A stretch of 59,243 bases of DNA, the filler included. It is 3 parts of 3 records of this genome, joined end to end, with 100 filler letters (N's around TTAATTAATTAA, not from the genome) between each part and the next. Parts side by side here need not be neighbours in the genome. Positions count along the whole stretch, not along the records: positions 23,563 to 48,691 come from DRR723986_10191; 2 more parts are not named here. One strand, 5' to 3'. This document shows positions 24,267 through 48,232 of this stretch, piece by piece (the stretch's first letter is position 1; each line of letters begins with the position of its first letter). The notes beneath the pieces were generated by a model, which was given only the letters and a program-made list of their open reading frames with translations, was not told the DNA's origin and made no database searches. Position numbers and translations under genes: made by a program.

Positions 24267-24941
24267 TTACTCTGTTGAAGCGTGATTGCGGGCTTCCCGG
24301 ATTTCGCCTCGTTCAATTACCAAGGTCCTCTCGGCAAACTTTCTAAGTAAGTCAGGGTTCGACTCCGTGATAATTAGAGTAACTTCACGATCGCTATTCC
24401 GAAGTTTTCTCAGTGCATCGGCATATTTATGTGCCAGCGCGGGCGCCAAACCTTGAAATGGTTCATCAAGCATTATCAGCTTGGATCCGATGACAAGTGC
24501 GCGGCCCAAGGCGACCATCTTGCCTTGTCCGCCGGACACGGCCCCAGCAGGACGTTTTGCCATCTCCTGTAGCTCAGGTAGGATCTCGTAGACGCGCTCC
24601 ATCTTGGCGGCGAGTTCTGCCTCGGAATAGCCAGCGACTTGCCCTGGCATCTTGATGTTCTCTTCTACCGTGAAGCCGGAGAACAGGCGACGATCCTCAG
24701 CGGCATAACCGATGCCCAACCCCGGACGACGCGAAGGCGCCACTTTGGAAAGGACCCCGCCGTCGAACTCAATTTGGCCGGTCATTTCCGTCAAGCCCAT
24801 GATCGTGCGCAGCGTCGTTGTCTTACCTGCGCCGTTTGCGCCGATTAGGGCGACAGTCGACGATTTTTCGATCTTCAGATTGACATTGCGCAGAATCCGG
24901 ATGCCGCCAAGGCGAACCGTTACGTCTTTCAATGCGAGCAT
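24267..24941 (-). CDS. ABC transporter ATP-binding protein (LivF-like)
   Basis: GANGAGKTT, VSGGQ, LDEPFQGLAP. Confidence 0.9.
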   Translation of the reverse strand: MLALKDVTVRLGGIRILRNVNLKIEKSSTVALIGANGAGKTTTLRTIMGLTEMTGQIEFDGGVLSKVAPSRRPGLGIGYAAEDRRLFSGFTVEENIKMPGQVAGYSEAELAAKMERVYEILPELQEMAKRPAGAVSGGQGKMVALGRALVIGSKLIMLDEPFQGLAPALAHKYADALRKLRNSDREVTLIITESNPDLLRKFAERTLVIERGEIREARNHASTE

Positions 24942-25694
24942 TTAAAGCTCCTCCCCGATCACGTCCCGGATCACGTCCGGGTGCTTAAGGATATCATCAG
25001 GCGCGCCCCTGAACAGGACCTGACCACGGTTCCAGACCGCAACTTCATCCGCGAACCGTTCCACGATGCCCATGTCGTGCTCGACAAAAACGGCCGTCAC
25101 CTTCGATTCCTGTAATGCACCCGAGATGATTTCGAGCACCTCAAATTTCTCTGACGAAGCCACGCCAGAGGTCGGTTCATCCATGAACAGGAGCCGGGGC
25201 TTCAGCGCCAGTGCAAGGGCGATGTCGATCAGCTTGCGCTGGCCTTCGGGGAGTTCCGAGACCAATCGGTCGGCCAGATGAGCACATTTGATCATATCGA
25301 GCATATGCAACATCTCGGTGCGCTGCGCGATCCGGTCAATGCGGGTCAGGGGCGCCCAGTTACGGGCCTGCGCCGCCCCGGCCATCAGCATGTTTTCCAT
25401 CACCGTGTGCTCGGTAAACAGCTGCGGGATCTGGAACGCCCGCGCGACCCCCTTTCGGACGAGTTTGCGCGGCGCGATTCCGGTCACATCCTGTCCGTCG
25501 AAGAAGATGTGGCCCGCATGCGGCTTAAGGTACCCGGTGCACATGTTCAGGAACGTGGTCTTGCCCGCCCCGTTGGGTCCGATGATGGCAAGGTTTTTGT
25601 GCTCCATGATCTCGATGTTGATGCCGGAGGCGGCGATCACGCCGCCGAAGCGAATTTCAAGATCCTTGGCCTGCAGAAGAACGGTCCCGCTCAT
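24942..25694 (-). CDS. ABC transporter ATP-binding protein (LivG-like)
   Basis: IIGPNGAGKTT, ARAFQIPQLF, MDEPTSG, VEHDM; ATG at 25694 overlaps the permease stop. Confidence 0.9.
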   Translation of the reverse strand: MSGTVLLQAKDLEIRFGGVIAASGINIEIMEHKNLAIIGPNGAGKTTFLNMCTGYLKPHAGHIFFDGQDVTGIAPRKLVRKGVARAFQIPQLFTEHTVMENMLMAGAAQARNWAPLTRIDRIAQRTEMLHMLDMIKCAHLADRLVSELPEGQRKLIDIALALALKPRLLFMDEPTSGVASSEKFEVLEIISGALQESKVTAVFVEHDMGIVERFADEVAVWNRGQVLFRGAPDDILKHPDVIRDVIGEEL

Positions 25695-26656
25695 TGGCCG
25701 GCCTCCTCTTTCTCGGATCGGCCGCTGCCAAGCCTTTGTGACAGGCCGATAATGCCGCTCGGGGCGAAGAGGATCACCACGAGAAGCACCGCGCCGAGAA
25801 CCAGCTGCCATATGTCGGCGGCGAAGGCGGCTGCGTAGGTCTTGACGAATTCATAGGCCAGGGCCCCGACAAGAGCGCCGTTCACCGAGCCTGCACCGCC
25901 CAGAATGGCGATGAACACGAACTCGCCCGACCGGATCCACCAGGCATATTCCGGCGTGACGATCCCCTGGGCGGTCGCCATAAGTGCACCGCCGAGGCCG
26001 CAGAGCGCGGCAGACAGAACATAGCCGGCCAGAAGTACCGAGCGCGACGAGACGCCGAGATATTCGAGGCGGACTTCGTTTGTCTTTATGGCGCGCATCA
26101 TCTGTCCCAAGGGCGAGCTGAGGAAGCGATGGGTTAGGGCCAGCGCGGCCAGCACGAGGACCAGCGAGCCATAGAACAGCACCCATTCGAACGGCGCACG
26201 CTCCAGCGCCATCCCGAGCACCGTCGGGCGCGGCACGCTCAGCCCGTCGGAACCGCCTGTAATGTAATAGAATTTTTCCAGGAAGGAATAAAAGATCATC
26301 GAGGCCGCGAGGTTCAACATACCAAAGAAGATGTGGCGATAGCGCACAATGAAGAGGCCGACGATCAAGGCGACAACCGATGCGGACGCCACGCCGAACG
26401 CGAGGTTCAGAATTATCTCGCCGCCGCCCATGGACCGTCCCAGAAAGGCCGCCCCATAGGCTGCGACGGCGAAGAACAGCGCGTGCCCGAAAGACACCTG
26501 CCCTGCCTGCAGCAAGACGATGACACCGAGCACCGCAAGCGATTTGGCTAACGCGAGCGTGAGGAGCACTTGCGTGGTCGGCGCCACGACTGGAGCGATG
26601 GCGAGAAGCGCCACGATGATCAGGGGCAACCATCGCTTTGAAAGTTGTGAAGTCAT
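25691..26656 (-). CDS. Branched-chain amino acid-type ABC permease (LivM-like)
   Basis: GQVSFGHALFF, TGGSDG, SPLGQMMRAIKTNEVR, ILGGAG. Confidence 0.9.
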   Translation of the reverse strand: MTSQLSKRWLPLIIVALLAIAPVVAPTTQVLLTLALAKSLAVLGVIVLLQAGQVSFGHALFFAVAAYGAAFLGRSMGGGEIILNLAFGVASASVVALIVGLFIVRYRHIFFGMLNLAASMIFYSFLEKFYYITGGSDGLSVPRPTVLGMALERAPFEWVLFYGSLVLVLAALALTHRFLSSPLGQMMRAIKTNEVRLEYLGVSSRSVLLAGYVLSAALCGLGGALMATAQGIVTPEYAWWIRSGEFVFIAILGGAGSVNGALVGALAYEFVKTYAAAFAADIWQLVLGAVLLVVILFAPSGIIGLSQRLGSGRSEKEEAGQ

Positions 26657-26665
26657 CTGTGCGTC

Positions 26666-27571
26666 CTAAATCTTGCGCGCTTCGATGGCGCCAAACAGAC
26701 CCTGAGGCCGAACCAGAAGCACACCGAACATGATCAGGTAGGGTACGAGGACCTGCATCTCGGGCCAGACATAGACGGCAAAGCTGCGGCCCAGACCGAT
26801 CATCAGGGCAGTGATCGCCGCGCCTTCGATCTGTCCCAATCCGGCGGTCGCGACGACGGCAAAGGACAGCACGATCATGTCCGCGCCCATTCCGGGAACA
26901 ATGGATGTGGTCGCCGATGCCAGGGCACCACCAAGCGCGGCCAGCGAGGCGCCTACGATGAAAGTGATCAGGTAGACCTTTTCGGCATCGATCCCGATCG
27001 TGATCGCGGCTTCACGATCCTCGGTCACGGCGGTGATCAGGCGTCCGGTCAAAGTGCGACGCAGCCCGAGCCTGAGACCGACAAGGACGAGGATCGCCAC
27101 TACCGGGAGGAAAATGAGCTGGTATGCCGTGTATGTGATCCCGAAAACGGACACCGTCCCAAGCTGGTTGAGCGCGGTTGCTTCGAAGAGCGGCTGAACG
27201 CCCCAGACGAGGCGCTGGAAGTCTTCGAGTATCAAGAAGACGGCAAAAGTCACCAGGATCTGCAGCACATCTTCGAGATGGTAGATGCGGCTCAGCAGAA
27301 ATTTCTCGATTGGTCCTCCGATGACCAAACCAACCAGCGCAGCGGCCACGATCATCAAAGGAAAGGCCAGCCAGGACGAAAACCCGGCAGCGAAGATGGC
27401 GCCCCCTACCGAAGCCGTCGTATATGCGCCGATCGCGTAGAAGGACCCATGCGCCACGTTCAGAACGCGCAACACGCCGAAAATCAGCGTCAGGCCGACA
27501 GCCACAAGAAAGACGAGCGCCGCGTAGGAAATGCCGTCAAAAATGGCCAATGCAAAAAGTTGTGCGTTCAT
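26666..27571 (-). CDS. Branched-chain amino acid-type ABC permease (LivH-like)
   Basis: VAVGLTLIFGVLRVLNVAHGSFY, LLVRPQGLFG. Confidence 0.9.
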   Translation of the reverse strand: MNAQLFALAIFDGISYAALVFLVAVGLTLIFGVLRVLNVAHGSFYAIGAYTTASVGGAIFAAGFSSWLAFPLMIVAAALVGLVIGGPIEKFLLSRIYHLEDVLQILVTFAVFLILEDFQRLVWGVQPLFEATALNQLGTVSVFGITYTAYQLIFLPVVAILVLVGLRLGLRRTLTGRLITAVTEDREAAITIGIDAEKVYLITFIVGASLAALGGALASATTSIVPGMGADMIVLSFAVVATAGLGQIEGAAITALMIGLGRSFAVYVWPEMQVLVPYLIMFGVLLVRPQGLFGAIEARKI

Positions 27572-27627
27572 TTCGGCTCCTTCGGTGAACCCCGGCGCGC
27601 CACTGCAGGCACGCCGGGGTACTTGGA

Positions 27628-28926
27628 TCAGTTGCTGTGCTGGAAAGTTTCGACCGGCACGCTGTCGATGAAATCAGGCGTCAGAGTCTGAAGCCAGTCT
27701 GCCGAGATCTGACCGACGGGCGTGGTGATCGGCTCGCCATCGAACATCATCATGTTGTCCAGCAGGGCAAAATCGTAGCCGTCCACGCGGATCGTCGTTC
27801 CCAGAAGCTGGTCTTCGACGCCCTGATGATCCTCGCGGATCGTCACCTCGCGCCCAAGCCCGGCGAAGGTCAGCCCTTCCAGAGCATTGATGACCTGTTC
27901 GTCCGAAGGCCACTCGCCGCCATTGTCAGCCATCGCTTTTTCATACGCGCCTTTCAGAGCCGAAAGTGCCTGGCTAACATGGAACACAGGGTAAGTCGGA
28001 ACGTCGCCGGTCTTTTCCTTGAACGCGTCCACGAACGCGACAAAGGCTGGATCTTTGATCTTCTCGGGATGCAGGAAATAGTGATCGCCCCGCGCGCCAA
28101 CGATATGGCCCGCCGGCAAAGCACTTCCCAGACGTTCTAGCGAACTTTCGCCAAGCGGCAGGACCAGCGTCGACGCGTTGGTCAGGCCGCGCTGCGACGC
28201 CTGGCGGACAAAAGTATCGAGGTCGCCACCCCAGGAGGTCGAAAGAATGACATCAGGGCGCAGAGCCTGAAGGCGAGAGATCTCGGTGGAAAAGTCGGGT
28301 GTGCCAAACTTCGGGAAGAACTCGGCAACTACCTCGACGTCGGGCTTCAGTTGCTTCAGAGCTGCCGAGAAGATGGCCCAGCTGTCGCGCCCCCAGGCAT
28401 AGTCCTGGTTGACGACCGCAATGGTCTGGAAATCCGGTTTGGTCTTTAGGAGATATAAGACCGTCGACAACATTTCCGGTGTCGCATTCGCCTGGGTCCG
28501 GAAGCTGTATTGGAAGTCGTTTTCCTCGAAGACCTTCTGGGTACCGCAATCCCACATGATGTTGAGAATCTTAAGGTCCTCGGCAAGCGGGCCGACCTTG
28601 GTGCAATTGCCCGAAGAAATCGAGGCGAACATCGCATCCACGCCTTCACTTTCAACCAAACGACGATACTCGGAAAGCAGCGCTTCGCCGCCTGCACCTT
28701 CGTCGATGAAGCTGGCTGTAACAGGAACCCCACCGATGCCACCGTTGGCATTCATGTCCGCAATGATCATCTCAGCGGCAGCCTTGGCGGGCTCCCCAAA
28801 GACCGATGCAGGACCCGAAAGAAACGCTGTAATGCCGATCTTGACTTCGGCAGGCTTCTCGTCAGCGATTGCGGCAGTGGCGAACAACGCAAGTGCAGTG
28901 GTCGTATTCAGAATAGTCTTGAGCAT
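27628..28926 (-). CDS. ABC substrate-binding protein (type 1 PBP, aromatic/organic-acid or BCAA-like)
   Basis: Signal peptide, FLSGPASVFGEP, NQDYAWGRD, SWGGDL; GGGAGG RBS. Confidence 0.9.
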   Translation of the reverse strand: MLKTILNTTTALALFATAAIADEKPAEVKIGITAFLSGPASVFGEPAKAAAEMIIADMNANGGIGGVPVTASFIDEGAGGEALLSEYRRLVESEGVDAMFASISSGNCTKVGPLAEDLKILNIMWDCGTQKVFEENDFQYSFRTQANATPEMLSTVLYLLKTKPDFQTIAVVNQDYAWGRDSWAIFSAALKQLKPDVEVVAEFFPKFGTPDFSTEISRLQALRPDVILSTSWGGDLDTFVRQASQRGLTNASTLVLPLGESSLERLGSALPAGHIVGARGDHYFLHPEKIKDPAFVAFVDAFKEKTGDVPTYPVFHVSQALSALKGAYEKAMADNGGEWPSDEQVINALEGLTFAGLGREVTIREDHQGVEDQLLGTTIRVDGYDFALLDNMMMFDGEPITTPVGQISADWLQTLTPDFIDSVPVETFQHSN

Positions 28927-29043
28927 TGATTTTCCTCCCTAAAGGCGCAATCCCACCGCTCCAATCAGCGGATATGGCCTGATGCAAGTATATCCCTGGC
29001 ACAGATTTGCTTCTGTAGGCATCGACCAGTACCTTCGCTGGGT

Positions 29044-29058
29044 ATAGATTTTTCCTAA
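29044..29058. promoter_or_regulatory. LysR-type box, near match (ATAG-N7-CTAA)
   Basis: ATAGatttttcCTAA in the divergent SBP/fumarase intergenic region; T-N11-A. Confidence 0.5.
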
Positions 29059-29140
29059 GGCGAGCCTCGCGAGGCTGCCTGCCAGTTGCCACGTCGGTTT
29101 CTTCCCACCATCATCCTTGCAACAAGCTGGAGGGTGCCAA

Positions 29141-30635
29141 ATGGCAACAGGCACGATCCTTGGTCAGGATATTGCAAAGACGATCCGGGCGGCGCTGCAA
29201 TACATTGCAGTCTACCATACTCCTGACTCCCTGAAGCAACTGACCTTCGCCTACGAGAAAGAGGAAAGCGAGGCCGCGCGTTCAGCAATCGGTCAAATTT
29301 TGGAAAGCTCACGCCTTGCGGCTTTAGGAAACAGGCCCATGTGCCAAGACACCGGCATGGTGACGGTCTTCGCAAAAATCGGCCAGTCAGTCGTCATCGA
29401 GGGCGACAAAACCTTCTCCGAATACGTGAACGACGGTGTCCGCCAAGCCTATCTAGACGAAGGAAACCCTCTTCGGGCCTCGATGGTTGGAGACCCAATT
29501 TTCGAGCGCAAAAACACGCGAGACAATATGCCGACAGTGACTCACGTTGAGATCTGTGTAGGCAACACACTCGAACTGTTGGTTGCGGCCAAACGTGGCG
29601 GATCGGAAAACAAAGCGCGCTACACGATGTTGAACCCTGCCGCGTCTGTCGCAGACTGGGTGGTTGATGCGGTTGCGGGTCTCGGTGCGGACCGGTGCCT
29701 GCCCGGCCTAATCGGCGTCGGCGTGGGCGGCAGCGCTGAAAAGGCGATGTTGCTGGCAAAGCGTGCGCTCATGGACGAGATCGATATCGGCGAACTGCAG
29801 AAACGCGGCCCGTCGTCGAAGGAAGAAGAGCTTCGCCTCGAACTGTACGAGCGGATCAACGCGCTTGGAATTGGGGCGCAGGGTCTTGGTTGCTTGACCA
29901 CAGTGGTCGATGTCAAGTTGGCAACTTATCCGACCCACGCCGCGTCGAAGCCCGTAGCCCTGATGCCGCAATGTGCCGCAAACCGTCATGCAAAAGTGAC
30001 CTTGCGTGGGGATGGCCCGGCCTACCTCGATCCGCCTGATCTCGAAGCTTGGCCGAAGATCGATGGCTCACAAGGTACAGAGGGTATGCTGCGCGTCGAT
30101 GTCGACACCCTGACCCCCGAAGCAATGCAGAACTGGAAACCCGGTGACCGCCTCTTGTTGAGCGGCAAGATACTGACCGGGCGCGACGCAGCGCACAAAC
30201 GTATCGCGGACATGCTGGCAAATGGTGAGCCCCTGCCCTTCTCTCTCAAGAATAGGGTGATCTACTATGTCGGGCCTGTCGACCCTGTTGGAAACGAAGT
30301 AGTCGGCCCGGCGGGCCCAACGACGTCGACCAGGATGGACGGAATACACGCAAATGATGCTCGATCAAGGTGTTTTGAGCATGATTGGGAAGGCTGAGCG
30401 TGGAGCCGACAGCGTCCAACGGATCGCCAAGGCCGGCGCGACCTACCTGATCGCCGTCGGGGGCGCGGCCGTTCTGGTCGCCAAAGCCATTACCAGCGCG
30501 CGACTTGTCGCCTTTGAAGATCTCGGCATGGAAGCGGTTCGGGAGTTCGAGGTCAAAAACATGCCGGTCACGGTCGCTGTGGATGTCGCCGGACAGAGCA
30601 TTCATAAACTTGGCCCCGCGCGATGGCGCAGATGA
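29141..30635 (+). pseudogene. Class I (Fe-S) fumarate hydratase/mesaconase-like gene, frameshifted
   Basis: RPMCQDTG, GSENK, CAANRH, TGRDAAHKR, GPTTSTRMD. One extra base at about 30341 (GAC-G-GAA-TAC); the rest (MIGKAERG, AVGGAA, DLGMEAV) continues in the next frame to 30635. Confidence 0.85.
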
Positions 30636-30752
30636 GGCACTGACCTTGGAAGTAGGGATCTCGTTTTACCTATAACCCTCATACACTTTGCCGACTGTTT
30701 CAACGGTCAGCCTAGGTCTATGTCGTGATCAATCCCCGATATGTGAAGATCC

Positions 30753-32306
30753 ATGAAAACTTACGCGGCAATTTCTCCCGAAACAGTGTCTCCAGAACAT
30801 TTGGCTCGACTTATGAGCGTTGAAGGAGGCATCCGCACCCCACTCGGCGTTGCGCCGACGATCATGGAATCCAGCCTGGTTCCCAGGCAGATTGCGCCAA
30901 AACCGCACGTTGATTGCTCGGCAAAAGTATTGCGTACCTTAGATGAGGTTTTTGAATGTTTCTCGATTTCGGATGGGCAGACACTGTCGTTCCACCACCA
31001 CTACCGAAACGGAGATCGTTTGATCAATGAAGTGTTAATGACGGCATGGCGGCTCGGTATTTGCGATTTGACGATCGCCCCCAGTTCCATATTCCCTGTT
31101 CATGCAGACTTGGTGCCCCTCATCCAGGACGGCACGATAACGAACATCATCACCGACTACATGCGAGGCCCCGTCGCGGATTCCGTGGCGGCAGGCGAAC
31201 TCAAAGGCTCCAGCCTACTTCAGAGCCACGGCGGGCGCGCGCGCGCGATTGCAAGCGGTCAGCTCAATATCGACGTCGCCTTTGTCGCAGCGCCCCTGGC
31301 CTCCCGTAACGGCGACACCACTGGGCGCGGTGGTCGTGTGGCATGCGGACCGCTCGGCTATCCGGCAGTGGACGCTGCCTACGCCGCACATACGATCGTC
31401 GTCACGGATGAGTTGACGACAGGCGCATTGGGCAAAATCGATATTCCCGGCCACTACGTCGACGCCGTCGTGCAGATGGACAAACCTGGCCTGACGGACG
31501 GAATTCAGTCCGGGGCAACCGTACCTTCGTTGACCGATAGTGCCCGCCAAATCGGCGCGATGGTTGCCGCTTGTATCGAGGCCGCAGGTTTGTTGCGGTC
31601 TGGCGTGTCGCTGCAAAGCGGGGCTGGCGGCTATTCCTTGGGCGCGGTGGCTTCGATTGGCGCGCGAATGCAGAAATTGGGGGTGCAGGGCAGTTTCCTG
31701 TCGGGGGGGATCACCGCGTCTCATGTCAAGATGCTGGAAGCCGGGCTCTTTGCCGAAATCAAGGATGTTCAATGCTTTGACCTCGAAGCGGTTCGTTCCT
31801 CGATCGCGAACGAGACCCATCACATGATGACAGCCGCCGAATACGCCAGCCCCATTCAAGACGGGGCTGTCGTCAATGAACTCGACGTTATGCTCCTTGG
31901 TGCCGTTGAGATGGACGCGCGTTTCAATGTGAATGTCGTTCTGGGCGGCGATGGCAGAGTCCTGGGTGGGCCAGGCGGACACCCTGATACGGCAGCTGGC
32001 GCCAAGTTGCGCATCGTCACCACCGAGCTTACGGGCGGCGGCTACGCCAAGCTCGTTCCCGAGGTGCAGAGCGTCTCAACCCCGGGGTGGGACGTCGATC
32101 TGATCGTGACCGACCAAGGGATTGCAGTTCATCCTAGCCGCTCGGACTTGCAGGAACGACTCGTAGCCGCCGGTCTTCCGGTCCGCCCCTTTGCCGAGCT
32201 TTGTGACATGGCGGCTGCACAAGCGACCAAGCAGCCTCAGAGGGCGGATAGAGCCCCTACCGTCTGGATCGAATCTCGGGACGGACGTATTCTCGATTAT
32301 ATCTAG
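30753..32306 (+). CDS. citF: Citrate lyase alpha subunit-like CoA/ACP transferase
   Basis: SFHHHYRNGD, SHGGRARAI, CGPLGY, QSGAGG, DVQCFD, FNVNV..G.DG, GGHPDTAAGAK, TPGWDVD, RDG near the C-terminus. Confidence 0.88.
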   Translation: MKTYAAISPETVSPEHLARLMSVEGGIRTPLGVAPTIMESSLVPRQIAPKPHVDCSAKVLRTLDEVFECFSISDGQTLSFHHHYRNGDRLINEVLMTAWRLGICDLTIAPSSIFPVHADLVPLIQDGTITNIITDYMRGPVADSVAAGELKGSSLLQSHGGRARAIASGQLNIDVAFVAAPLASRNGDTTGRGGRVACGPLGYPAVDAAYAAHTIVVTDELTTGALGKIDIPGHYVDAVVQMDKPGLTDGIQSGATVPSLTDSARQIGAMVAACIEAAGLLRSGVSLQSGAGGYSLGAVASIGARMQKLGVQGSFLSGGITASHVKMLEAGLFAEIKDVQCFDLEAVRSSIANETHHMMTAAEYASPIQDGAVVNELDVMLLGAVEMDARFNVNVVLGGDGRVLGGPGGHPDTAAGAKLRIVTTELTGGGYAKLVPEVQSVSTPGWDVDLIVTDQGIAVHPSRSDLQERLVAAGLPVRPFAELCDMAAAQATKQPQRADRAPTVWIESRDGRILDYI

Positions 32307-32318
32307 TTGGAGTTTGAC

Positions 32319-35227: not shown

Positions 35228-35240
35228 AGATAATTTCCCA

Positions 35241-35280: not shown

Positions 35281-35292
35281 AAGTTCAGACGA

Positions 35293-37882: not shown

Positions 37883-37887
37883 ATTTT

Positions 37888-39427: not shown

Positions 39428-39449
39428 TTTCGAGAGTTGGAGGGCAGTT

Positions 39450-39464
39450 ATAGTTTTCATCTAT
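39450..39464. promoter_or_regulatory. LysR-type binding box ATAG-N7-CTAT
   Basis: ATAGttttcatCTAT, centred near -65 of the promoter above. Confidence 0.65.
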
Positions 39465-39479
39465 GGCAACCCGTGGGCG

Positions 39480-40412: not shown

Positions 40413-40441
40413 AGTTGCCGTCCTCCCTCGGCGCCATCATC

Positions 40442-40456
40442 ATAGAAACGATCTAT
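40442..40456. promoter_or_regulatory. LysR-type binding box ATAG-N7-CTAT
   Basis: ATAGaaacgatCTAT in the divergent lysR/CoA-transferase gap, the classic autoregulatory position. Confidence 0.65.
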
Positions 40457-40540
40457 ACCCAATCAAGTGCCGACATGCCTGTTACCGCGAACCTTTCTGT
40501 TGTGAGATGAAGGTTAGTTTCATTCACGAACGGAAAAGCC

Positions 40541-41680
40541 ATGTCGGATCTGCAGAACCTCCTCGTCGTTTCGCTGGAACACGCGGTTGCCGCTCCATAT
40601 GCTTCGTGCAAGCTGGCCGACGCTGGCGCGCGGGTCATAAAGGTCGAGCGACCGGAAGGTGATTTTGCAAGAAACTATGACCATCTAGTACACGGTGAAA
40701 GCGCCTATTTCGTCTGGATTAACCGTGGCAAGGAATCGATCTGTCTTGATCTTAAAACGGAAGCTGATCGCTGTTTGCTCCGGCGGATGATCATTGAAGC
40801 GGATGTGTTCCTGCAAAACCTTGGACCCGGCGTGATCGAGCGGCTTGGCATCGACATTGAAGAAATCCGTAAACAAAATCCGAAGTTGGTTTTTTGCTCG
40901 ATTTCCGGGTACGGGTCGGAAGGACCTGCCAAGGATCAAAAAGCCTATGATTTGCTGATCCAGGCCGAAACGGGCCTTTCGGCGATAAACGGTTTGCCAG
41001 AGGGGCCCGCACGCGTCGGTGTGTCCGTGTGCGATATCGCGGCCGGCATGACGGCATTCTCGGCGATTTTGCAGGCTTTGATCGGGCGCGAAAAGACCGG
41101 AGTGGGCCGTGACATCGAGGTGTCCTTGTTTCACGCCATGGCCGACTGGATGAACGTACCTTATCTGCAATACAAGTATGGCCACCATGAGCCAAAGCGT
41201 ATGGGGCTCAATCACCCGACAATCGCTCCTTATGGGGCCTTCGCCTGTTCAGATGGCAAAGAGATTCTCATTTCGATCCAGAACGAGCGCGAATGGCAGA
41301 ATTTCTGCAGGGTGGTGTTGCAGGACGAAAACTTGCCAACTGTCGAAGGGTGGCGATCCAATTCCGAACGCATCGCAAATAGGACGGAAGTTGACGCCAA
41401 GGTGGCAAGCGTGTTGATCGAGATGACCCGCGATGTGGTCATCGAAAAAGCCAAGCAGGCAGGTATTGCCTATGGCAGGCTTTCGGACATGGATGATCTG
41501 ATCACTCACCCCCAGCACCGATATGTCGGCGTGCGCGTTTGTGACAAGGAAATCGAGGTGCTCGCCCCCGGTGCCCTGATGAAGGGGCAGCCGTGGGTCG
41601 TTCCTTCGGTTCCAAAAGTAGGACAGGACAGCGACCGCCTCAGAGGCGAGTTTGCCGTTGAAACGGCCAACACAGACTGA
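40541..41680 (+). CDS. Class III (CaiB/BaiF) CoA-transferase
   Basis: SLEHAVAAPY, LADAGARVIKVERPEGDFAR, NRGKES..LDLK, YDLLIQAE, catalytic Asp in VCDIAAG. Confidence 0.92.
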   Translation: MSDLQNLLVVSLEHAVAAPYASCKLADAGARVIKVERPEGDFARNYDHLVHGESAYFVWINRGKESICLDLKTEADRCLLRRMIIEADVFLQNLGPGVIERLGIDIEEIRKQNPKLVFCSISGYGSEGPAKDQKAYDLLIQAETGLSAINGLPEGPARVGVSVCDIAAGMTAFSAILQALIGREKTGVGRDIEVSLFHAMADWMNVPYLQYKYGHHEPKRMGLNHPTIAPYGAFACSDGKEILISIQNEREWQNFCRVVLQDENLPTVEGWRSNSERIANRTEVDAKVASVLIEMTRDVVIEKAKQAGIAYGRLSDMDDLITHPQHRYVGVRVCDKEIEVLAPGALMKGQPWVVPSVPKVGQDSDRLRGEFAVETANTD

Positions 41681-41741
41681 AGTCATCTTCGTCGCGCCGT
41701 AAAAACCGAGGCTCCCAGAAAAATGCCCTAACCGACGAACC

Positions 41742-41774
41742 AAAAAAGAGGCAGCGCTTCAACGCTGCCTCTTT
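41742..41774. terminator. Bidirectional intrinsic terminator
   Basis: AAAAAAGAGGCAGCG-CTTCAA-CGCTGCCTCTTT between convergent genes. Confidence 0.85.
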
Positions 41775-41796
41775 CGGTCTGCAGGATGCCCGTGGC

Positions 41797-43254
41797 TTAC
41801 TTCTTGAACATATAAGCCTTGGTATTGGTGAATTCCTCGAGGCCTTCCTTGCCGTTTTCCACGCCCATACCGGACTGTTTGTGGCCGCCGAATGGGATGT
41901 CGATACCGTGGATGTGGATTTCGTTCACCCAGACAGTACCCGCTTCGAGGCGGTAGGCCACGTCGATAGCCTCGGAGCGATCCGGGCCCCAGACAGAGGC
42001 AGCAAGGCCGAAGTCGGTGTTGTTGGCATCCGCAACCACATCGTCCAGATTGCTCCATCGCACCACCGGCAGGATCGGGCCGAAGGGCTCTTCACGCACG
42101 ATGCGGCTATCCCGAGGCGGGTTGTCGACGATCGTGATCGGTACGAAGTTGCCGGCCAGCGATTCATCGATCTCGCCACCAAGGGCAACCTTGTAGCCGT
42201 TCGCTTTGACGTCTGCGAACATGTCCAGAAGCTTACCGTACTGCATCTTGTTCTGGATCGGGCCGAGGTCGGTGCTCGGATCCATGCCATTGCCCACCGT
42301 CTTCTCGGACGCGTAGGCGACGAAATCCTTCAGGAAATCATCGTAAATGCTGTCGTGGACATAGAGCCGCTTGATCGCAATGCACCACTGGCCCGAATTG
42401 CCGAAGGCCGCATCAAAGAGCGCCGGGATCAGGGGCTTGTAATCCGTGTCGGGCAGCAGGATAGCCGGATCGTTGCCCCCCAGTTCCAGCGTCACGCGCT
42501 TGAGGTTGCAGCTCGATGCCGCCATGACCTTCTTCCCGGTCGCGGTGGAGCCGGTGAAAGAGATCTTGTTGACGTCGTTATGCTCGGTAATCCAGGCGCC
42601 CTGCGCGTTGCCACCGGACACGATGTTCAGAACCCCTGCCGGGAGAACCTTCTGCGCGATCTCGCCGAACTTCAGCGTGCCAAGCGGCGTGTAGGGCGAC
42701 GGCTTCATAACCATCGTGTTGCCGGTGATCAGGCAGGGCGCGACCTTCCACAGGCCAAGCAGGATCGGGAAGTTCCACGGTGTGATCGCGCCGACCACGC
42801 CCAGCGGCGTATGGGCGACCTTCACGATGTGCTCCGGCGTGTCCTCAATCACTTCTTCCTCAAGCTTGCGCTTGGCGACTTCGCGCACCCAGTAGATGGC
42901 ATATTCGACCTCGACCGTCGCCATCGAATGGCGCGGCTTGCCTTGTTCGGTGGTCAAGAGAGTGATGATCTCTTCCTTGTGCGCATCAAGCGCATCTGCA
43001 TAGGCGGTCAGGTAGGCCGAACGTTCTTCCCAGCTCAGCGCCGCCCAACCAGGCTGCGCATATTTCGCAGCAGCGATGGCTTCATCGACCTGCTCGCGGG
43101 TGGCTTCGGGCGCGTTGGCGATGACTTCGCCGGTGGCCGGGTTATAGACGTCGAAGGTTTGGTTTGCGCCGACCAGGCGCCCACCAATGCTCATGACATA
43201 AGGGCCGTTGTAGTCGACCTTGGTGTCAGAACTGATGTTGGCTTTTACATTCAT
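41797..43254 (-). CDS. Aldehyde dehydrogenase (second paralogue)
   Basis: ITPWNFP, KPSPYTP, FTGSTATG, LELGGND, NSGQWCIAIKR, EEPFGP; ATG 43254 behind GGGAGG. Confidence 0.93.
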   Translation of the reverse strand: MNVKANISSDTKVDYNGPYVMSIGGRLVGANQTFDVYNPATGEVIANAPEATREQVDEAIAAAKYAQPGWAALSWEERSAYLTAYADALDAHKEEIITLLTTEQGKPRHSMATVEVEYAIYWVREVAKRKLEEEVIEDTPEHIVKVAHTPLGVVGAITPWNFPILLGLWKVAPCLITGNTMVMKPSPYTPLGTLKFGEIAQKVLPAGVLNIVSGGNAQGAWITEHNDVNKISFTGSTATGKKVMAASSCNLKRVTLELGGNDPAILLPDTDYKPLIPALFDAAFGNSGQWCIAIKRLYVHDSIYDDFLKDFVAYASEKTVGNGMDPSTDLGPIQNKMQYGKLLDMFADVKANGYKVALGGEIDESLAGNFVPITIVDNPPRDSRIVREEPFGPILPVVRWSNLDDVVADANNTDFGLAASVWGPDRSEAIDVAYRLEAGTVWVNEIHIHGIDIPFGGHKQSGMGVENGKEGLEEFTNTKAYMFKK

Positions 43255-43279
43255 GGTAGTCCTCCCAAGAGTATTGGTT

Positions 43280-44281
43280 TCAGATTTGGTAACGGATGTG
43301 CGGAGCGCGGGCATAAAGCGCGACCATCGGAAGGATCAGCAGCCCGAACACGGTCTGTTGAGCGGCATAGTTGAGCCCCAAACCCACTAGGAAGGAGGTC
43401 AACACTTGAAGCACCAGCACGCCAACGATGGTGGCCCCATACCCTCCCGATCCACCCAACAGAGAAGTCCCGCCAACGACGACTGCAGCGACGGTCGTGA
43501 AGAGATAGGGATCCCCTACCCCGACAAAGCCGCCTCCAGAGAAGCCTAGCAAAAGCATGCCAGTAATCGAGGCCGTCAGTCCCGAAACCGTGTAGGTGCT
43601 GACCCAGACCTTGAATTCGGAAATGGATAACACCGAGGAAGCCGTTCGGTTGTTGCCAACGGCATACAAGGCACGCCCTGCGCGGTTATTGTGAATCCAG
43701 AAAATGAGGATAGCGGAAACGACAGCCCAGATCAGAACGACGGGCGGAAACGGCATTCCAAAAGTCTTGCCGCTGATTGCCGAGATATTCGAGAACCACG
43801 CCGGGACTTGGCTGAAGACAGTGCCTGAGTATTGCGATCCGAAGGTGGTAAAGATTTGTGCTGCCCCCACCAGCGAGAATCCAATCCCCAGCGTGAGGAT
43901 CAACGCCTGGCCTTGAAGCCTATAGCTAAGTACCCCGTTAAGTGCGCCAATCGCTGCGCCAAGGACAGCAATGATAACGATCCCTAGTGCCGGCGGGATT
44001 GAAGTGCCAAACAGGTAGGCAAGCAAAATGTTCGAGGCTCCGATTACGAACGGAATCGACAAGTCCAGCCCGCCCACAGTAGCAACCAGCGTTTGCCCTA
44101 AAGCGGCCAGCCCCAGAAACGACGCGAGTAGCAGGATTGAGCGCGCATTGTTTGTAGACGCAAAACCATCCACTGACATTGACGCAACGCCGATCAGTAC
44201 TGCCAACAGCACGATTCCGATGATCAAGCTCTTCTGGTCTGAGCCAAGAAGGCTATTTCTAAGCGAGGCTTGTGATGCCAT
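43280..44281 (-). CDS. Sugar-type (RbsC-like) ABC permease
   Basis: GQTLVATVGGLDLS, GRALYAVGNN, AAVVVGGTSLLGG. Confidence 0.9.
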   Translation of the reverse strand: MASQASLRNSLLGSDQKSLIIGIVLLAVLIGVASMSVDGFASTNNARSILLLASFLGLAALGQTLVATVGGLDLSIPFVIGASNILLAYLFGTSIPPALGIVIIAVLGAAIGALNGVLSYRLQGQALILTLGIGFSLVGAAQIFTTFGSQYSGTVFSQVPAWFSNISAISGKTFGMPFPPVVLIWAVVSAILIFWIHNNRAGRALYAVGNNRTASSVLSISEFKVWVSTYTVSGLTASITGMLLLGFSGGGFVGVGDPYLFTTVAAVVVGGTSLLGGSGGYGATIVGVLVLQVLTSFLVGLGLNYAAQQTVFGLLILPMVALYARAPHIRYQI

Positions 44282-44329
44282 TGTCGTCTCCGGGTTTTTC
44301 AGCGGTATTGGCCAGTCCATCTTGGGACC

Positions 44330-45295
44330 TCACGCTGTGCGTAGTCTGGATTGAGTTGTGAGGAGGCTGATCAGCAGGGACAGCACGAGCATCAACCCAT
44401 AGCTGAGTTGTGTCATGTAACCGGAGATCGCACCAAAGTTGAAAGATGAAAGCACCACAAAGACCAAATACATGGCCACGGCCCCCAGAATCGACCCGGT
44501 CACGCCCCCCTTGCCTCCAGACAACGATGTGCCACCCAGCACCAGAGCGGTGATCGCCTGAAGTGTCAGCGTATTGCCTTGCGAAGGATCCCCGGAACCG
44601 ATCATGCCGGTCAGACACAAGGCCGCGAGGCCTGCGAAAACGCCTGCCACCAGATGTGCGGCGATCCGGGCGGCGACGATGTTGACGCCGCTGGTGTAGG
44701 CCGTGCGCTCATCGGCGCCCATCAAACGGATGTGCTGAAACATCGGCGTCCTCTGGAACACAAACCAAAAAGCACAGGCCGCAATCAGAATATAAAGAAC
44801 CGGTCCAAGCAGCTCGGTGCCCCAACCCCAGTCACCCAGCCAATCCGGCGCTAAGCCACCCGGCCGAGGAAGGATCACCAGATTGACCCCCTGTAAGATC
44901 ATGTACCCGGCCAACGAAGCGATAATCGGCGAAATACGCACGTAGATGATGATCATCGCGAGCAAGAATTGCCAAAGACAGGCAATTCCGATGGCAAATG
45001 CAAATACTGCTACGGGGTTTGTGATTTCCAGAGCGCCGAGCCAGACGACGATGGTCACGTTCACGAAGCCGATCATCGGACCAATGGAAAGATCCACGCC
45101 GCCACGACCCGCTATTGCGATGGGCGTGATGGCCATTGCCGCGAGAATCAGAGGCGCTGCGATCAGCACGGCCCCGGCCAGGCCCACATAGGTGAATGTC
45201 TGCGGCGCACGCACAGCGGCCAGAACCCCAAGGATCACGACAAGCCCAAGAGGAACGGCAAGATGATTGAACTGGTTCAGGATTTTTCTGTTCAT
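44330..45295 (-). CDS. Sugar-type ABC permease
   Basis: GGVDLSIG, MGADERTAYTSG, ALVLGGTSLSGG. Confidence 0.9.
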   Translation of the reverse strand: MNRKILNQFNHLAVPLGLVVILGVLAAVRAPQTFTYVGLAGAVLIAAPLILAAMAITPIAIAGRGGVDLSIGPMIGFVNVTIVVWLGALEITNPVAVFAFAIGIACLWQFLLAMIIIYVRISPIIASLAGYMILQGVNLVILPRPGGLAPDWLGDWGWGTELLGPVLYILIAACAFWFVFQRTPMFQHIRLMGADERTAYTSGVNIVAARIAAHLVAGVFAGLAALCLTGMIGSGDPSQGNTLTLQAITALVLGGTSLSGGKGGVTGSILGAVAMYLVFVVLSSFNFGAISGYMTQLSYGLMLVLSLLISLLTTQSRLRTA

Positions 45296-46866
45296 TGCGC
45301 TGCCGCTTGTAGTTGCGTCTCAGAGGGCAATTCCTGTTCCAGAACCTCACTCATTTCTACGGGTTCAGACTGGCCGAACATGGCCCCTAGTATCGTTTCC
45401 TCGCCGATCTGGTCTTCATCGAAGCTGGCAAACAGACCGCTTTCGAAGAACACGTCGGCCCGGTCAGCAAAATTGAAAAACTCTTCGATTTCGGTCGAGA
45501 GGTAGATCACCGCGCCGCCTTCCGCAGCAAAGGCACGAAGGTGCGTATACAGATCCTGTTTCGTGCCGATATCCACACCGCGCGCCGGATCATTCAGGAT
45601 GATGATCCTCGGGTTCAGCGCAAAGGCGCGGGCAATCAGAACCTTTTGTTGGTTGCCGCCGGAAAGCGTGGTGATCTTGTCCGAGCGGCGCCCAAACTTG
45701 ATCGAAAGACGCTCCTTCTCCCTTTGGAAAACGTCATTGAGCGCCTTGTGGTCGATGAACCCGGCTTTATTGGCGTAGCGACCGTAAAGGGCCAGTCCGA
45801 AATTCTCGAGGATCGACAGATTGGCAAAGATGCCCTCTTTCTTACGATCCCCTGAAACATAAGCGATCCGGTTCGACTCTGCAGATGCGAGGTCGGCAAC
45901 CAGATGCTCTTCCCCTTCGTCATCCCATACAGTGACAGTGCCGTGCGGTGCCTTATCAATGCCGGCAAGGATCCGAACGAACTCGGCTTGCCCGGCACCG
46001 TCCAGACCCGCGATGCCGACGATCTGGCCCGGGAAAACCTGAAAATTGAAACTGTGTCCTTTCGTGGACAAAGCGATATCCGACGCTCGCAGCACGGGTG
46101 TTCCGCCACCGAAGACCACGCGATTTTTCGCGACTGACCTGGCCGAATGATCCGTCTTCGCCGACATCAACCGCAGCAGATTTTCTTCGGTCATGTCCGC
46201 GCGTCCGATTTGCCCTACGGTTTCACCGTCGCGCAGAACGGTTGCCTGATCGGCGAATTTGACCAGTTCAGCAATGCGGTGCGTAACGATGATCACGGCT
46301 GTGCCATCTGCTTTGAGCGTCAGCATTTCGTGGTGAAGGCGGCCGGTCGCCTCTAGATCGAGCGCGGCAGAGCTTTCGTCAAACACCAGTACCTTCGGTT
46401 TCTGAAGAAGCGCGCGGGAAATCACGATCCATTGCTTCACGCTGAGCGGAACGGAGGAGACGGGCCAGTCCGGGTCGATCGGGCAATCCGCCAGCCGTTC
46501 CAGGATTTCCTTGGTGCGGCGCTTCTTCTCCGTGACCGAAGAAGAGCGCTTCCAGAAGGAGTCACTCCCAGCAAAGACGTTTTCCCAAATCGTGAGGCTC
46601 TCGGCGAGCATCATTTCCTGGAAGATGGTCGACACGCCTATCGCTATTGCTTCGGTCGGTGAGCTTGGCGTATGGCCCAACACGTCAACCGCACCGCTGT
46701 CGGCAGGCACCACACCCGATATGATTTTTGCAAGAGTGCTTTTCCCGCTGCCATTTTCGCCGACGATGGCATGGATTTCGCCAAAGTTCGCTGCGAGCGA
46801 AGCGGCGCGCAGCGCGCGGGTCTCGCCAAAATTCTTGCTGACATTCTTGACAGAAATCGCGGTCAT
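45292..46866 (-). CDS. Sugar ABC transporter ATP-binding protein (tandem NBDs)
   Basis: GENGSGKST, DESSAAL, LSGGNQQK, NDPARGVDIG. Confidence 0.92.
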   Translation of the reverse strand: MTAISVKNVSKNFGETRALRAASLAANFGEIHAIVGENGSGKSTLAKIISGVVPADSGAVDVLGHTPSSPTEAIAIGVSTIFQEMMLAESLTIWENVFAGSDSFWKRSSSVTEKKRRTKEILERLADCPIDPDWPVSSVPLSVKQWIVISRALLQKPKVLVFDESSAALDLEATGRLHHEMLTLKADGTAVIIVTHRIAELVKFADQATVLRDGETVGQIGRADMTEENLLRLMSAKTDHSARSVAKNRVVFGGGTPVLRASDIALSTKGHSFNFQVFPGQIVGIAGLDGAGQAEFVRILAGIDKAPHGTVTVWDDEGEEHLVADLASAESNRIAYVSGDRKKEGIFANLSILENFGLALYGRYANKAGFIDHKALNDVFQREKERLSIKFGRRSDKITTLSGGNQQKVLIARAFALNPRIIILNDPARGVDIGTKQDLYTHLRAFAAEGGAVIYLSTEIEEFFNFADRADVFFESGLFASFDEDQIGEETILGAMFGQSEPVEMSEVLEQELPSETQLQAAAQ

Positions 46867-46940
46867 CTGGTGTGCCGTTTCGTTAAATTTGTCGAAAGAG
46901 GTCTGGACGCCCGCGCAGGGCAGGCGTCCAGGTTCGTGCC

Positions 46941-48110
46941 TTACTCGGCTTTCCACTCGAGAGGATCGACGGGGCGCAGGAAGTAGGTCGAAGCGACCTC
47001 GTTCGGGAACCAGACGTCAATTCCCGGCTGAATGTAGTCGGTCGAGTCGATCGAACAGTCATTGGGCAGCGCGGCCACATACTCTTCGGCGGGCACGCGA
47101 TAAACGCCACGGAGGATTGACTGGATAATCGGTCCCTGGTTCTGCAGCGTGCGAATGACCGAGTTGATGCCCAACTCCATCTCGTCGCCCGGGGGCCATA
47201 TCTGGAACGCGTGGCTCATCCATTCGGGGTGGTTTTTCAAGTAGCAGGCGGCACCGGCGGACCCTGCAAGGGAGATCGGCATCACCTCACGCCCCGACTG
47301 CAGAACAGCTTTCAGAACACCGGTTTCCTGCGAACCCTGAGCGATGATGCCGTCGATCTGGGTTGGGTTGGTTGCAAGGAACTTCTGCACCTCGGTCTGA
47401 GCGACCTGATCCGTCCAGTTGCCCCAAACTTGGCCAATCAGATTGGCTTCCGGGAATTCCTCCAGCGCGCGCCTAGCACCGGTGTCGAAGCTTTCGGACG
47501 ATGCCGCACCGGCGATGCCGGACACGAGCAGGAAGTTGCCCTTACCGCCCGCTTCCTCGATCAGCGCCTTGGCGATTTCATAGCCACCGAGAGTGTAGTT
47601 CGAAGATGCATTGAGCGCCTTTTCCGAGGTCAAGTACCCGGAGTATGAGAACACGACAACGCCCTTGTCATAGGCATATTCTACAGCCTTATTCAGAGCG
47701 ACGGGGTTGGAACAGCAGACGATGATCGCGTCCACGCCTTGGTCGACGAGTTGCCGCATCTGCTGGATTTGCCGCGAGTCATTGAGGTCGGACTGCGTGA
47801 CGATGACCTCGTCGATCAGGCCGGCTTCCTTGTAAACCGGAAGCATTTCCTCGGTCAGCCGCTTGAGGCCTTCGGCACGCCACGTGTTGCCTGCATAGGA
47901 GCTTGCGTAGCCGATGGTCCACGGCGGGCCGGACCGCGGGGTCCAATCACGATATGCTGATTGCCCAATGGGTTGCCCATCGTCCACGCCTTCATACGCT
48001 GCCGCCGTATCCGCCGGCAGTTCACTGACCGCACTCTGCGCCTGGGCCGTTGCCGCAAAACCAGCAACAGCAAAAGGCAGAGCCGCCAGAAGGGTTTTCA
48101 TATTTTTCAA
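46941..48110 (-). CDS. Sugar-type ABC substrate-binding protein
   Basis: Signal peptide, YAGNTWR, QIQQMRQLVDQGVDAII; TTG start 7 nt after GGGAGG (ATG 48101 is an alternative). Confidence 0.9.
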   Translation of the reverse strand: MKNMKTLLAALPFAVAGFAATAQAQSAVSELPADTAAAYEGVDDGQPIGQSAYRDWTPRSGPPWTIGYASSYAGNTWRAEGLKRLTEEMLPVYKEAGLIDEVIVTQSDLNDSRQIQQMRQLVDQGVDAIIVCCSNPVALNKAVEYAYDKGVVVFSYSGYLTSEKALNASSNYTLGGYEIAKALIEEAGGKGNFLLVSGIAGAASSESFDTGARRALEEFPEANLIGQVWGNWTDQVAQTEVQKFLATNPTQIDGIIAQGSQETGVLKAVLQSGREVMPISLAGSAGAACYLKNHPEWMSHAFQIWPPGDEMELGINSVIRTLQNQGPIIQSILRGVYRVPAEEYVAALPNDCSIDSTDYIQPGIDVWFPNEVASTYFLRPVDPLEWKAE

Positions 48111-48217
48111 TGTACTTCCTCCCTGAAGATGTCTGCCGCACAAAGTGTGTAGCAGTCGTGGAACGAAGCTGACGCATAAGGCGTGGTCAGAGAAGTCAAT
48201 CTGACGATATGATAGCA

Positions 48218-48232
48218 ATAGTTAAAAACTAT
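48218..48232. promoter_or_regulatory. LysR-type binding box ATAG-N7-CTAT
   Basis: ATAGttaaaaaCTAT, upstream of a TTGACT -35-like hexamer (48194-48199, minus) of the sugar-ABC/ALDH operon. Confidence 0.65.

Follow-up and report, generated by a model that had tools for sequence, protein, structure and literature searches.

Does a run of transporter, oxidoreductase and CoA-enzyme genes in marine DNA encode one catabolic system, or is it a row of unrelated operons? The question is raised by a stretch of 59,243 nucleotides (the window, by which we mean the whole stretch of DNA that was analysed) and, within it, by positions 24267-48232, which the original prediction read as an undescribed catabolic system on an island bounded by insertion sequences (IS), joining periplasmic alcohol oxidation to CoA-dependent C-C cleavage. 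These positions are the coding part of a 25.1-kb contig (23563-48691), hereafter the middle contig. We conclude, at a probability of roughly 0.55, that the middle contig is Loktanella-like (Rhodobacteraceae) DNA carrying one modular catabolic regulon, apparently under the control of its own LysR-family regulator.

Seven gene families recur together in three orders

Relatives of the CitF-family CoA-transferase encoded at 30753-32306 (plus strand) were sought at a threshold of E <= 1e-20 in samples of 301 genomes of the family and 401 genomes of the class. A CitF-like gene is present in 14 of the 301 and in two of the 401, the latter count including Loktanella sp. IMCC34160 (G001), with genome G411 the only newcomer. 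We then mapped the window proteins onto 20-kb neighbourhoods taken from G411 and from the 13 family genomes that remain once G001 is set aside. Seven families recur in three gene orders, one found in the window and Loktanella, one in genome G043 and one in G411: a LysR-family regulator (39480-40412 in the window, minus strand), a class III (CaiB/BaiF) CoA-transferase (40541-41680, plus strand), an aldehyde dehydrogenase (ALDH), a short-chain dehydrogenase/reductase (SDR; 37133-37882, minus strand), a GMC-family flavoprotein oxidoreductase exported by the twin-arginine translocation (Tat) pathway (35293-37023, minus strand, signal SRRSFIRRA), a class I fumarase-like hydro-lyase, and the CitF-like transferase.

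G043 also has the sugar-type ATP-binding cassette (ABC) importer and the second aldehyde dehydrogenase (ALDH2). On a 3.8-Mb contig of this genome, genes for the Peripla_BP_4-type binding protein, the ATPase, two permeases, ALDH2, the fumarase homologue and CitF follow one another in the same orientation, separated by short gaps, an arrangement consistent with a single operon; GMC-SDR-ALDH1, LysR and class III CoA-transferase genes follow, with identities of 55-86% and in an order that differs from that of the window. The order is CoA-transferase / LysR-ALDH1-SDR-fumarase-like-GMC / CitE-CitF in G411, and ALDH / CitF-fumarase / LysR-SDR-LivFGMH-Peripla_BP_6-type binding protein in G004. The SDR of the window is ~81-83% identical to its counterparts in G004, G043 and G411. 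Because the parts are combined differently in different genomes, the system is modular, with an upper part for transport and oxidation, an activation part, and a lower part comprising the hydro-lyase and CitF.

Three further genomes, G025, G038 and G228, carry LysR, SDR, CitF and fumarase genes, to which G228 adds a CoA-transferase and an HpcH lyase. At all three loci (L025, L027 and L029) glutathione S-transferase (GST) genes stand beside this group, together with a SnoaL-like gene in G025. The GST genes may point to a glutathione-dependent step, such as isomerisation or the opening of an ether or epoxide, in these related versions.

Middle-contig DNA is 89-93% identical to that of Loktanella sp. 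IMCC34160, in which a 247-kb contig is colinear with window positions 24266-33120, 33223-37883 and 39401-48286. There are two differences: Loktanella has an additional zinc-dependent alcohol dehydrogenase (Zn-ADH) gene between citE and the ligase gene, and the place of ALDH1 is taken by ~1.5 kb of unassignable DNA, a different ALDH gene and a Pyr_redox_2 fragment. The Loktanella cluster (G001:C18; loci L014 and L016) is ~3 kb from a repA-repB-repC module (L016:3872-7478), with IS5- and IS3-type genes on the repABC side, an IS110 transposase gene and a ParB-like gene on the other side, and a LuxR/LuxI pair also in the surroundings. This suggests that the cluster sits on a plasmid or chromid. 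A mobile, IS-rich replicon context is thus real in Loktanella, though the window cannot show it; a megablast search of the contig against a plasmid collection gave a single 570-bp match, at 73% identity.

An operator-like box is shared by the promoter regions

The second line of evidence is a short dyad, ATAG-N7-CTAT, which occurs perfectly five times in the window against 0.20 occurrences expected; none of 100 shuffled sequences reached five. The middle contig holds three of the five, all in promoter regions. One (39450-39464) lies upstream of the ALDH1-SDR-GMC-cytochrome c-ligase string and is found at the same position in Loktanella, G043 and G411. Another (40442-40456) lies in the divergent region between the LysR and CoA-transferase genes, and the third (48218-48232), which precedes the probable start of the CUT2 binding-protein gene by ~115 bp, is present at the same position in Loktanella and G043. 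Loktanella has four perfect boxes, of which three match window positions and the fourth is upstream of an SDR gene. Perfect boxes occupy homologous positions in three of three cases in G043 and two of two in G411. Of 12 other loci checked, which are more distant or have CitF alone, 11 lack the box and L023 has one. Between the divergent Liv and fumarase units, the promoter region holds an imperfect LysR-type box with one mismatch, ATAGATTTTTCCTAA, at 29044-29058; Loktanella has exactly the same copy, which also has an 11-mer in common with the box at 40442.

The middle contig therefore has the sequence marks of a LysR regulon, namely a divergently transcribed regulator gene and T-N11-A-type dyads in the target promoters, and ATAG-N7-CTAT is a candidate operator to which the LysR protein would bind. 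A gene set conserved through rearrangement and a box common to its promoters are together good evidence for one regulon, and hence for a functional link among the operons.

Some modules also occur apart

The original prediction held that the operons form one system, and it named their independent occurrence in other genomes as the observation that would count against it. The families do recur, rearranged and with the shared box, in G043 and G411, but modules also occur separately, so that this observation was made in part. Several findings weigh against a single system. A CitF-like gene lacks a fumarase neighbour in seven of the 13 neighbourhoods. Orthologues of the HAAT-family binding protein are present in four of the 301 family genomes, and two of these four (G088 and G034) join the transporter to an SDR gene; neither has CitF or fumarase in the fetched stretch or, at E <= 1e-20, anywhere in the genome. 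G034 also carries ALDH1-like, Zn-ADH and CoA-transferase genes beside the transporter and SDR. GMC orthologues are found in three of the 301, two of which (G001 and G043) are also among the 14 with a CitF-like gene; the third, in G268, has internal stop codons and sits among beta-oxidation-type genes (ligase, MaoC hydratase, thiolase-like and acyl-CoA dehydrogenase). Only in the window and Loktanella does the set come with the ligase and cytochrome c, and five cluster-bearing genomes yielded no close CitE orthologue, their best identities being 30-38%; CitE, the ligase and cytochrome c are not conserved parts of the set. The box in the Liv/fumarase promoter region carries a mismatch, and a scan allowing one mismatch did not rise above chance (15 matches against 9.0 expected). 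Lastly, no protein of the contig attains an NCBIfam equivalog cut-off, and curated models therefore assign no substrate; the SDR alone passes an NCBIfam model, and this is a broad subfamily model.

The hydro-lyase gene (29117-30635, plus strand; likely start 29141), which encodes a fused class I (Fe-S) fumarase/mesaconase-like enzyme, adds a further point on the same side. Compared with the intact 500-amino-acid (aa) gene of Loktanella, at 92.9% DNA identity, it has one extra base at ~30343, which breaks it into open reading frames (ORFs) at 29117-30397 and 30354-30635 and divides the Fumerase_C domain over two frames. Three runs, each from a different study, have contigs with the same extra base (X1, X4 and X6; X1 and X4 are possible sources of the window DNA, and X6 is not marked as one), and so the frameshift is probably real in a natural lineage rather than a one-off assembly error. 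It is missing in X10, which represents a more divergent population, and in Loktanella sp. IMCC34160. In the present sequence this gene is a pseudogene, and the frameshift means that the lower branch is probably impaired in this lineage.

Given these findings, the alternative that survives best is that there is no single pathway, and that a plasmid-type accessory region has accumulated independent operons with different substrates: one that turns alcohols into acyl-CoA in the AlkJ/AlkH/AlkK manner, one that couples HAAT import to a separate dehydrogenase, one that pairs polyol import with an ALDH, and a small one for cleaving dicarboxylates. Besides the separate modules of G088, G034 and G268 and the CitF-like genes without a fumarase neighbour, the repABC module and the IS5, IS3 and IS110 genes around the Loktanella region favour this alternative, as does the reshuffling between the window and Loktanella, with the extra Zn-ADH and the different ALDH of the latter. 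We nonetheless consider it unlikely, though a serious contender, given the recurrence of the seven-family set in three gene orders, the head-to-tail arrangement of importer, ALDH2, hydro-lyase and CitF genes on one strand in G043, and the occurrence of the same box before each unit in four genomes.

Gene families and a possible pathway

Families were assigned by Pfam and NCBIfam on ORFs, 21 contig ORFs being scanned by Pfam, and every family named in the original prediction proved to be present where it had been placed. The genes for ALDH1 (37888-39351), the SDR, the GMC protein, a periplasmic mono-haem c-type cytochrome (34802-35281) and an AMP-forming acyl-CoA ligase (33200-34780) occupy 33200-39351 on the minus strand, with gaps of 5-109 bp. 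The cytochrome, a 159-aa ORF whose likely start is at 35227, has a signal peptide and the haem motif CLACH, and weakly matches CycA. The stretch that separates the GMC and cytochrome c genes contains a perfect stem of 15 bp closed by a 3-nt loop (35248-35280, minus strand), which overlaps the TTG given as start of the cytochrome ORF and is a possible intra-operon hairpin that would affect processing or translation. Also on the minus strand is a CUT2 ABC string, comprising the periplasmic binding protein (Peripla_BP_4; 46941-48218, likely start 48101), a double-domain ATPase (45292-46956) and two permeases (44330-45295 and 43280-44320), with ALDH2 (41797-43314) as its last gene. No signal peptide was found in ALDH1 or ALDH2, both taken as cytoplasmic. 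A second ABC importer, of the Liv/HAAT type, spans 24267-28926 on the same strand: a HAAT-family periplasmic binding protein (Peripla_BP_6; 27628-28926), which has only remote solved relatives (best E 2e-16), LivH/UrtB-like (26666-27571) and LivM/UrtC-like (25691-26656) permeases, and LivG/UrtD-like (24942-25811) and LivF/UrtE-like (24267-24941) ATPases. The true start of the LivG/UrtD-like gene is probably further in, the Loktanella gene encoding 250 aa. On the plus strand, the hydro-lyase and CitF-family genes are followed by a gene for a CitE/HpcH-family acyl-CoA lyase (32307-33143). Scans for sigma-70 promoters (10 promoter-like sites against 7.2) and for terminators (15 terminator-like sites against 19.5) did not exceed the values for shuffled sequences.

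Comparison with solved structures says little about substrate. The best solved relatives of the GMC protein are 3t37 ("Probable dehydrogenase", 298.2 bits) and pyridoxine 4-oxidase (4ha6, 297.1 bits). For the SDR, TsaC (8sy8) is the third-best match at 249 bits, nearly tied with two unnamed Brucella SDRs, and the best solved match of ALDH1 is an unnamed structural-genomics entry. The class III CoA-transferase scores similarly against oxalate, glutarate, mesaconate and hydroxymethylglutarate enzymes. Searches with both binding proteins, CitE, the CoA-transferase, the ligase and ALDH2 gave remote or unnamed relatives that were uninformative on substrate; the nearest solved relatives of the CUT2 binding protein, 4rs3 and 4rsm, were reportedly solved with polyols.

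In the scheme that we propose, all substrates and the order of the steps are inferred. The Tat-exported GMC protein would oxidise an alcohol group of a probably neutral, polyol- or diol-like compound in the periplasm, passing electrons to the co-encoded c-type cytochrome; the CUT2 and HAAT importers would take up the compound, its oxidised form, or both; and the SDR and the two ALDHs would complete oxidation to a (di)carboxylic acid in the cytoplasm. The ligase and/or the class III CoA-transferase would then make a CoA ester, the class I hydro-lyase would hydrate a fumarate- or mesaconate-type acid, the CitF-like transferase, independent of an acyl carrier protein, would load the hydroxy-acid onto CoA, and the CitE-family lyase would cleave the product to acetyl-CoA and a 2-oxo acid, either pyruvate or glyoxylate. 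Alcohol oxidoreductases and ALDHs are each present as a pair, which suggests that a diol is converted to a diacid.

The original prediction went further, and had the pathway split a C5 branched dicarboxylate into acetyl-CoA and pyruvate. A C5 route through mesaconate and citramalate is plausible on family membership: the hydro-lyase, whose gene is frameshifted, has the Fumerase and Fumerase_C domains of the class I fumarase/mesaconase family. No score separates C5 chemistry, which would give pyruvate, from C4 chemistry (fumarate, malate and malyl-CoA), which would give glyoxylate, or from tartrate-type chemistry. There are two candidates for an (S)-citramalate CoA-transferase, the CitF-like and class III proteins, for both of which all specific NCBIfam models score below cut-off, and the lyase does not reach the level of the (S)-citramalyl-CoA lyase (Ccl/RipC) of the mesaconate pathway. 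A fuller version, in which periplasmic GMC/cytochrome c oxidation of a methyl-branched C5 diol or polyol, such as a hemiterpene- or isoprene-derived diol or 2-C-methyl-erythritol, would yield a mesaconate- or citramalate-type diacid for a carrier-free citramalate lyase, is in our view improbable. The same doubt attaches to the lyase in that version, in which the CitF-like transferase would recycle acetyl-CoA while the CitE-like protein cleaves. If this version were true, the transferase would be the first member of the CitF family demonstrated to function in the absence of CitD.

A CitF subfamily without a carrier protein

The CitF-family protein scores 386.5 bits against PF04223 and 401.5 against TIGR01584, below the cut-off of 501.45 for the latter, and is 41-43% identical to Firmicutes relatives. 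Among 8000 candidates scored, 1448 are relatives at E <= 1e-50, with Sulfitobacter and other marine Alphaproteobacteria together supplying most of them. The only database names for these 1448 are "citrate lyase subunit alpha / citrate CoA-transferase", and a protein atlas likewise holds only generic "citrate lyase alpha" clusters. The partners of a citrate lyase alpha subunit were not found: neither CitD nor CitC, CitX or CitG is among the 21 scanned contig ORFs, and no family was hit in the gaps of more than 100 bp without a called gene (23741-23891, 30635-30753 and 48232-48691), where ORFs in them were checked. CitD (PF06857) is absent from all five genomes examined that carry a CitF-like gene, with Escherichia coli positive as a control. 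Since CitD is missing from the contig and from five of five related genomes, the CitF-like protein must use free CoA esters. The absence of CitD from the genomes checked also means that the label "citrate lyase subunit alpha" is probably wrong in function for this subfamily.

The CitE-like protein belongs to HpcH_HpaI at the family level, and falls short of a CitE beta subunit. It scores 132.7 against the RipC/Ccl model NF038242, its best (cut-off 375), and 108 against the CitE model TIGR01588 (cut-off 443.4); solved malyl-CoA lyases are among its best matches, at 98 bits. Its scores against these three kinds of enzyme are thus much alike. We therefore reject a true CitDEF lyase, the CitE model being below cut-off and CitD, CitC, CitX and CitG being absent.

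The CitF subfamily has a second, different context: at loci L022 and L023 (G286 and G158), a lone CitF-like gene lies directly downstream of a class III aminotransferase gene, beside a GntR regulator and an ABC importer.

Comparison with known systems

The lower part of the contig is most readily compared with mesaconate utilisation. As excerpted from PMC4682846, class I fumarases hydrate mesaconate and cluster with citramalate lyase (CitDEF-type) genes in anaerobes, and in B. xenovorans a citramalate CoA-transferase and a citramalyl-CoA lyase act after the hydratase. The contig resembles the latter route, which we compare by enzyme steps and not by gene cluster, in encoding a class I Fe-S hydro-lyase, a CoA-transferase and a CitE-family lyase together, with acetyl-CoA and pyruvate as predicted products. 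It differs in having two unrelated CoA-transferases (CitF-family and class III), a lyase that is just a distant relative of RipC/Ccl, a frameshifted hydro-lyase gene, and an association with a periplasmic GMC/cytochrome c pair, an SDR, two ALDHs and ABC importers. In glutamate-fermenting anaerobes, CitDEF genes with CitC, CitX and CitG cluster with the mesaconase MesAB (PMC4682846, same excerpts). Here too CitF and CitE homologues adjoin a class I fumarase homologue, but CitD and CitC, CitX and CitG are lacking, there are no glutamate mutase or methylaspartase genes, and the hosts are aerobic marine Alphaproteobacteria whose CitF has diverged from that of the Firmicutes.

The upper part recalls two other designs. 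Excerpts of the respective studies describe AlkJ-AlkH-AlkK of the OCT plasmid as a GMC alcohol dehydrogenase feeding the respiratory chain, an ALDH and an acyl-CoA synthetase (PMC8918992), and the polyethylene glycol (PEG) pathway of sphingomonads as the FAD-containing PEG dehydrogenase PegA, the aldehyde dehydrogenase PegC and the acyl-CoA synthetase PegE (PMC11644497). The contig operon at 33200-39351 likewise combines a choline-dehydrogenase-like GMC protein, an ALDH and an acyl-CoA synthetase, a likeness of design and not orthology. Unlike in those systems, the GMC protein is exported by the Tat pathway and has a soluble cytochrome c of its own as partner, an SDR gene is inserted, alkane hydroxylase and TonB receptor genes are absent from the contig, and what lies downstream is a hydro-lyase/lyase module rather than beta-oxidation.

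The SDR, ALDH and LysR genes have a parallel of their own. In Comamonas testosteroni, TsaR is a LysR regulator, TsaC an SDR alcohol dehydrogenase and TsaD an ALDH. The contig has an SDR that matches TsaC beside an ALDH and a LysR gene; it has no TsaMB oxygenase, and the similarity is at the family level only.

Several established pathways were tried and rejected. For choline oxidation by BetA/BetB, the GMC protein scores 363.5 against TIGR01810 (cut-off 732.1) and ALDH1 450.8 against TIGR01804 (cut-off 668.6), and the GMC protein is exported. Pyridoxine degradation combines pyridoxine 4-oxidase with a lactonase and a ring-opening oxygenase; the contig has no lactonase or flavin mono-oxygenase, and 4ha6 is the second-best GMC match only. 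For furan (5-hydroxymethylfurfural) degradation, the defining genes are missing or below cut-off by Pfam and NCBIfam. Canonical itaconate degradation proceeds through Ict, Ich and Ccl, Ich being a MaoC-type itaconyl-CoA hydratase (PMC13491972, excerpted text), and no MaoC-type Ich is encoded in the contig.

Two further alternatives keep the genes together and change the chemistry. One is PEG-like degradation of glycols or glycol ethers, in which the periplasmic GMC dehydrogenase, ALDH and acyl-CoA ligase would release glyoxylate, and the lower enzymes would run in the assimilatory direction: glyoxylate plus acetyl-CoA to malyl-CoA (CitE-like), then to malate (CitF-like) and fumarate (hydro-lyase). 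The window holds the same three families as PegA/PegC/PegE, with a periplasmic GMC protein; malyl-CoA lyases are, as noted above, among the best solved matches of the CitE-like protein; and the GST genes beside CitF-fumarase in G025, G038 and G228 recall the PEG pathway, in which GST lies downstream and glyoxylate is converted to malate (PMC11644497, excerpted text). Set against this, the Pfam scan found no TonB receptor, ether-cleaving enzyme or GST in the window, the ligase is missing from G043 and G411, the sugar-type binding protein speaks for a polyol and against a polymer, and the direction of the lyase is not readable from sequence; we regard the proposal as very unlikely. The other, which we think slightly less probable still, is that both ends of a C4 or C5 polyol are oxidised, yielding a tartrate-type acid, with the hydro-lyase as a tartrate-type dehydratase giving an oxaloacetate-type product and the CoA enzymes as a side branch: the CUT2 type of importer, the fit of GMC and SDR (in Loktanella also Zn-ADH) and two ALDHs with diol-to-diacid conversion, and the membership of class I fumarases and (2R,3R)-tartrate dehydratases in one family, with FumB converting tartrate to oxaloacetate (excerpts of PMC4682846), speak for it, but the hydro-lyase scores 246 bits against fumarate hydratase models and 104 against L-tartrate dehydratase alpha, and CitF, its most constant partner, is left unexplained.

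The middle contig and its borders

The original prediction of an IS-bounded island did not hold. Both borders of the middle contig are artificial linkers (23463-23562 on the left and 48692-48791 on the right), identical to one another and of the form N44-TTAATTAATTAA-N44. Linkers with stop codons in all six frames are used to string together the contigs of draft or binned assemblies. At least three contigs have thus been joined to make the window; 23563-48691 is one of them in its entirety, and the sequences beside it here do not adjoin it in a genome. No host DNA can be followed across either border, and the window cannot establish the middle contig as an island within a flanking genome. An IS remnant is present at the left end alone, as an N-terminal fragment of an IS3-family transposase OrfA (23563-23741, minus strand; 59 aa with HTH_Tnp_1, PF01527, 29.9 bits against a cut-off of 24.1) that is cut by the contig end. 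ORF and family scans recognised no IS gene at the right end, and a repeat search detected no terminal repeats bounding the region. Between the IS3 fragment and the Liv operon lies a 105-aa C-terminal piece (23891-24208, minus strand) resembling 4-hydroxyphenylpyruvate dioxygenase (HPPD) / 3-dehydroshikimate dehydratase (QuiC), which matches NF042435 at 551-625 of 635 (E 5.7e-16, far below cut-off) and is probably what is left of a truncated gene. The final 47 bases at the right end (48645-48691) are repeat-like, in that contigs of X1, X4 and X10 fit there and their upstream continuations differ, which accounts for the break in assembly at this end.

The middle contig probably comes from a different organism than the neighbouring contigs. 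Its GC content is 57.7%, against 49.7% and 52.0% in the two neighbours, and its tetranucleotide signature correlates at 0.86-0.92 with non-homologous Loktanella DNA and at 0.51-0.61 with the window flanks (the two halves of flank 1 correlate with each other at 0.92). The flanks carry housekeeping genes (RNase R, TopA, DprA, PlsY, PyrB, RuvX and GatA/B) and flagellar export genes, and the flank GatB is just 64-66% identical to that of four alphaproteobacterial genomes, Loktanella among them. The middle contig is either mis-binned Loktanella-like DNA or a very recent acquisition; the stretch itself is found in seawater, marine and estuary metagenomes. More generally, N-TTAATTAATTAA-N linkers flag contig joins in binned assemblies, and GC jumps at such joins are artefacts, not islands.

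In flank 1, 18204-23446 encodes a 934-aa met-zincin (DUF5117/DUF4953), a DUF6702 protein and a peptidase of the M1 family that reaches the contig end, all unrelated to the catabolic genes. Flank 3 opens after the linker with a DUF255 thioredoxin-domain protein (48930-51134); a DUF255 gene (L024:4115-6301) is also found 1 kb from the CitF cluster in G004, which is probably coincidence.

Discussion

The original prediction that the gene set is undescribed agrees with a full-text literature search, which found no paper on the combination, supplements and the primary paper on B. xenovorans being outside its scope. All of the parts belong to well-known families, and the logic of oxidising, activating, hydrating and cleaving is conventional. 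What is new is the recurrent coupling of these parts under one LysR-type box, the entry through a periplasmic GMC/cytochrome c pair, and a CitF subfamily without a carrier protein.

If the linkage holds, these genes would define an orphan, horizontally mobile regulon of marine Rhodobacteraceae, one that joins periplasmic flavoprotein/cytochrome c alcohol oxidation to CoA-dependent C-C cleavage, and whose substrate may be a carbon source of algal or atmospheric origin that is as yet uncharacterised.

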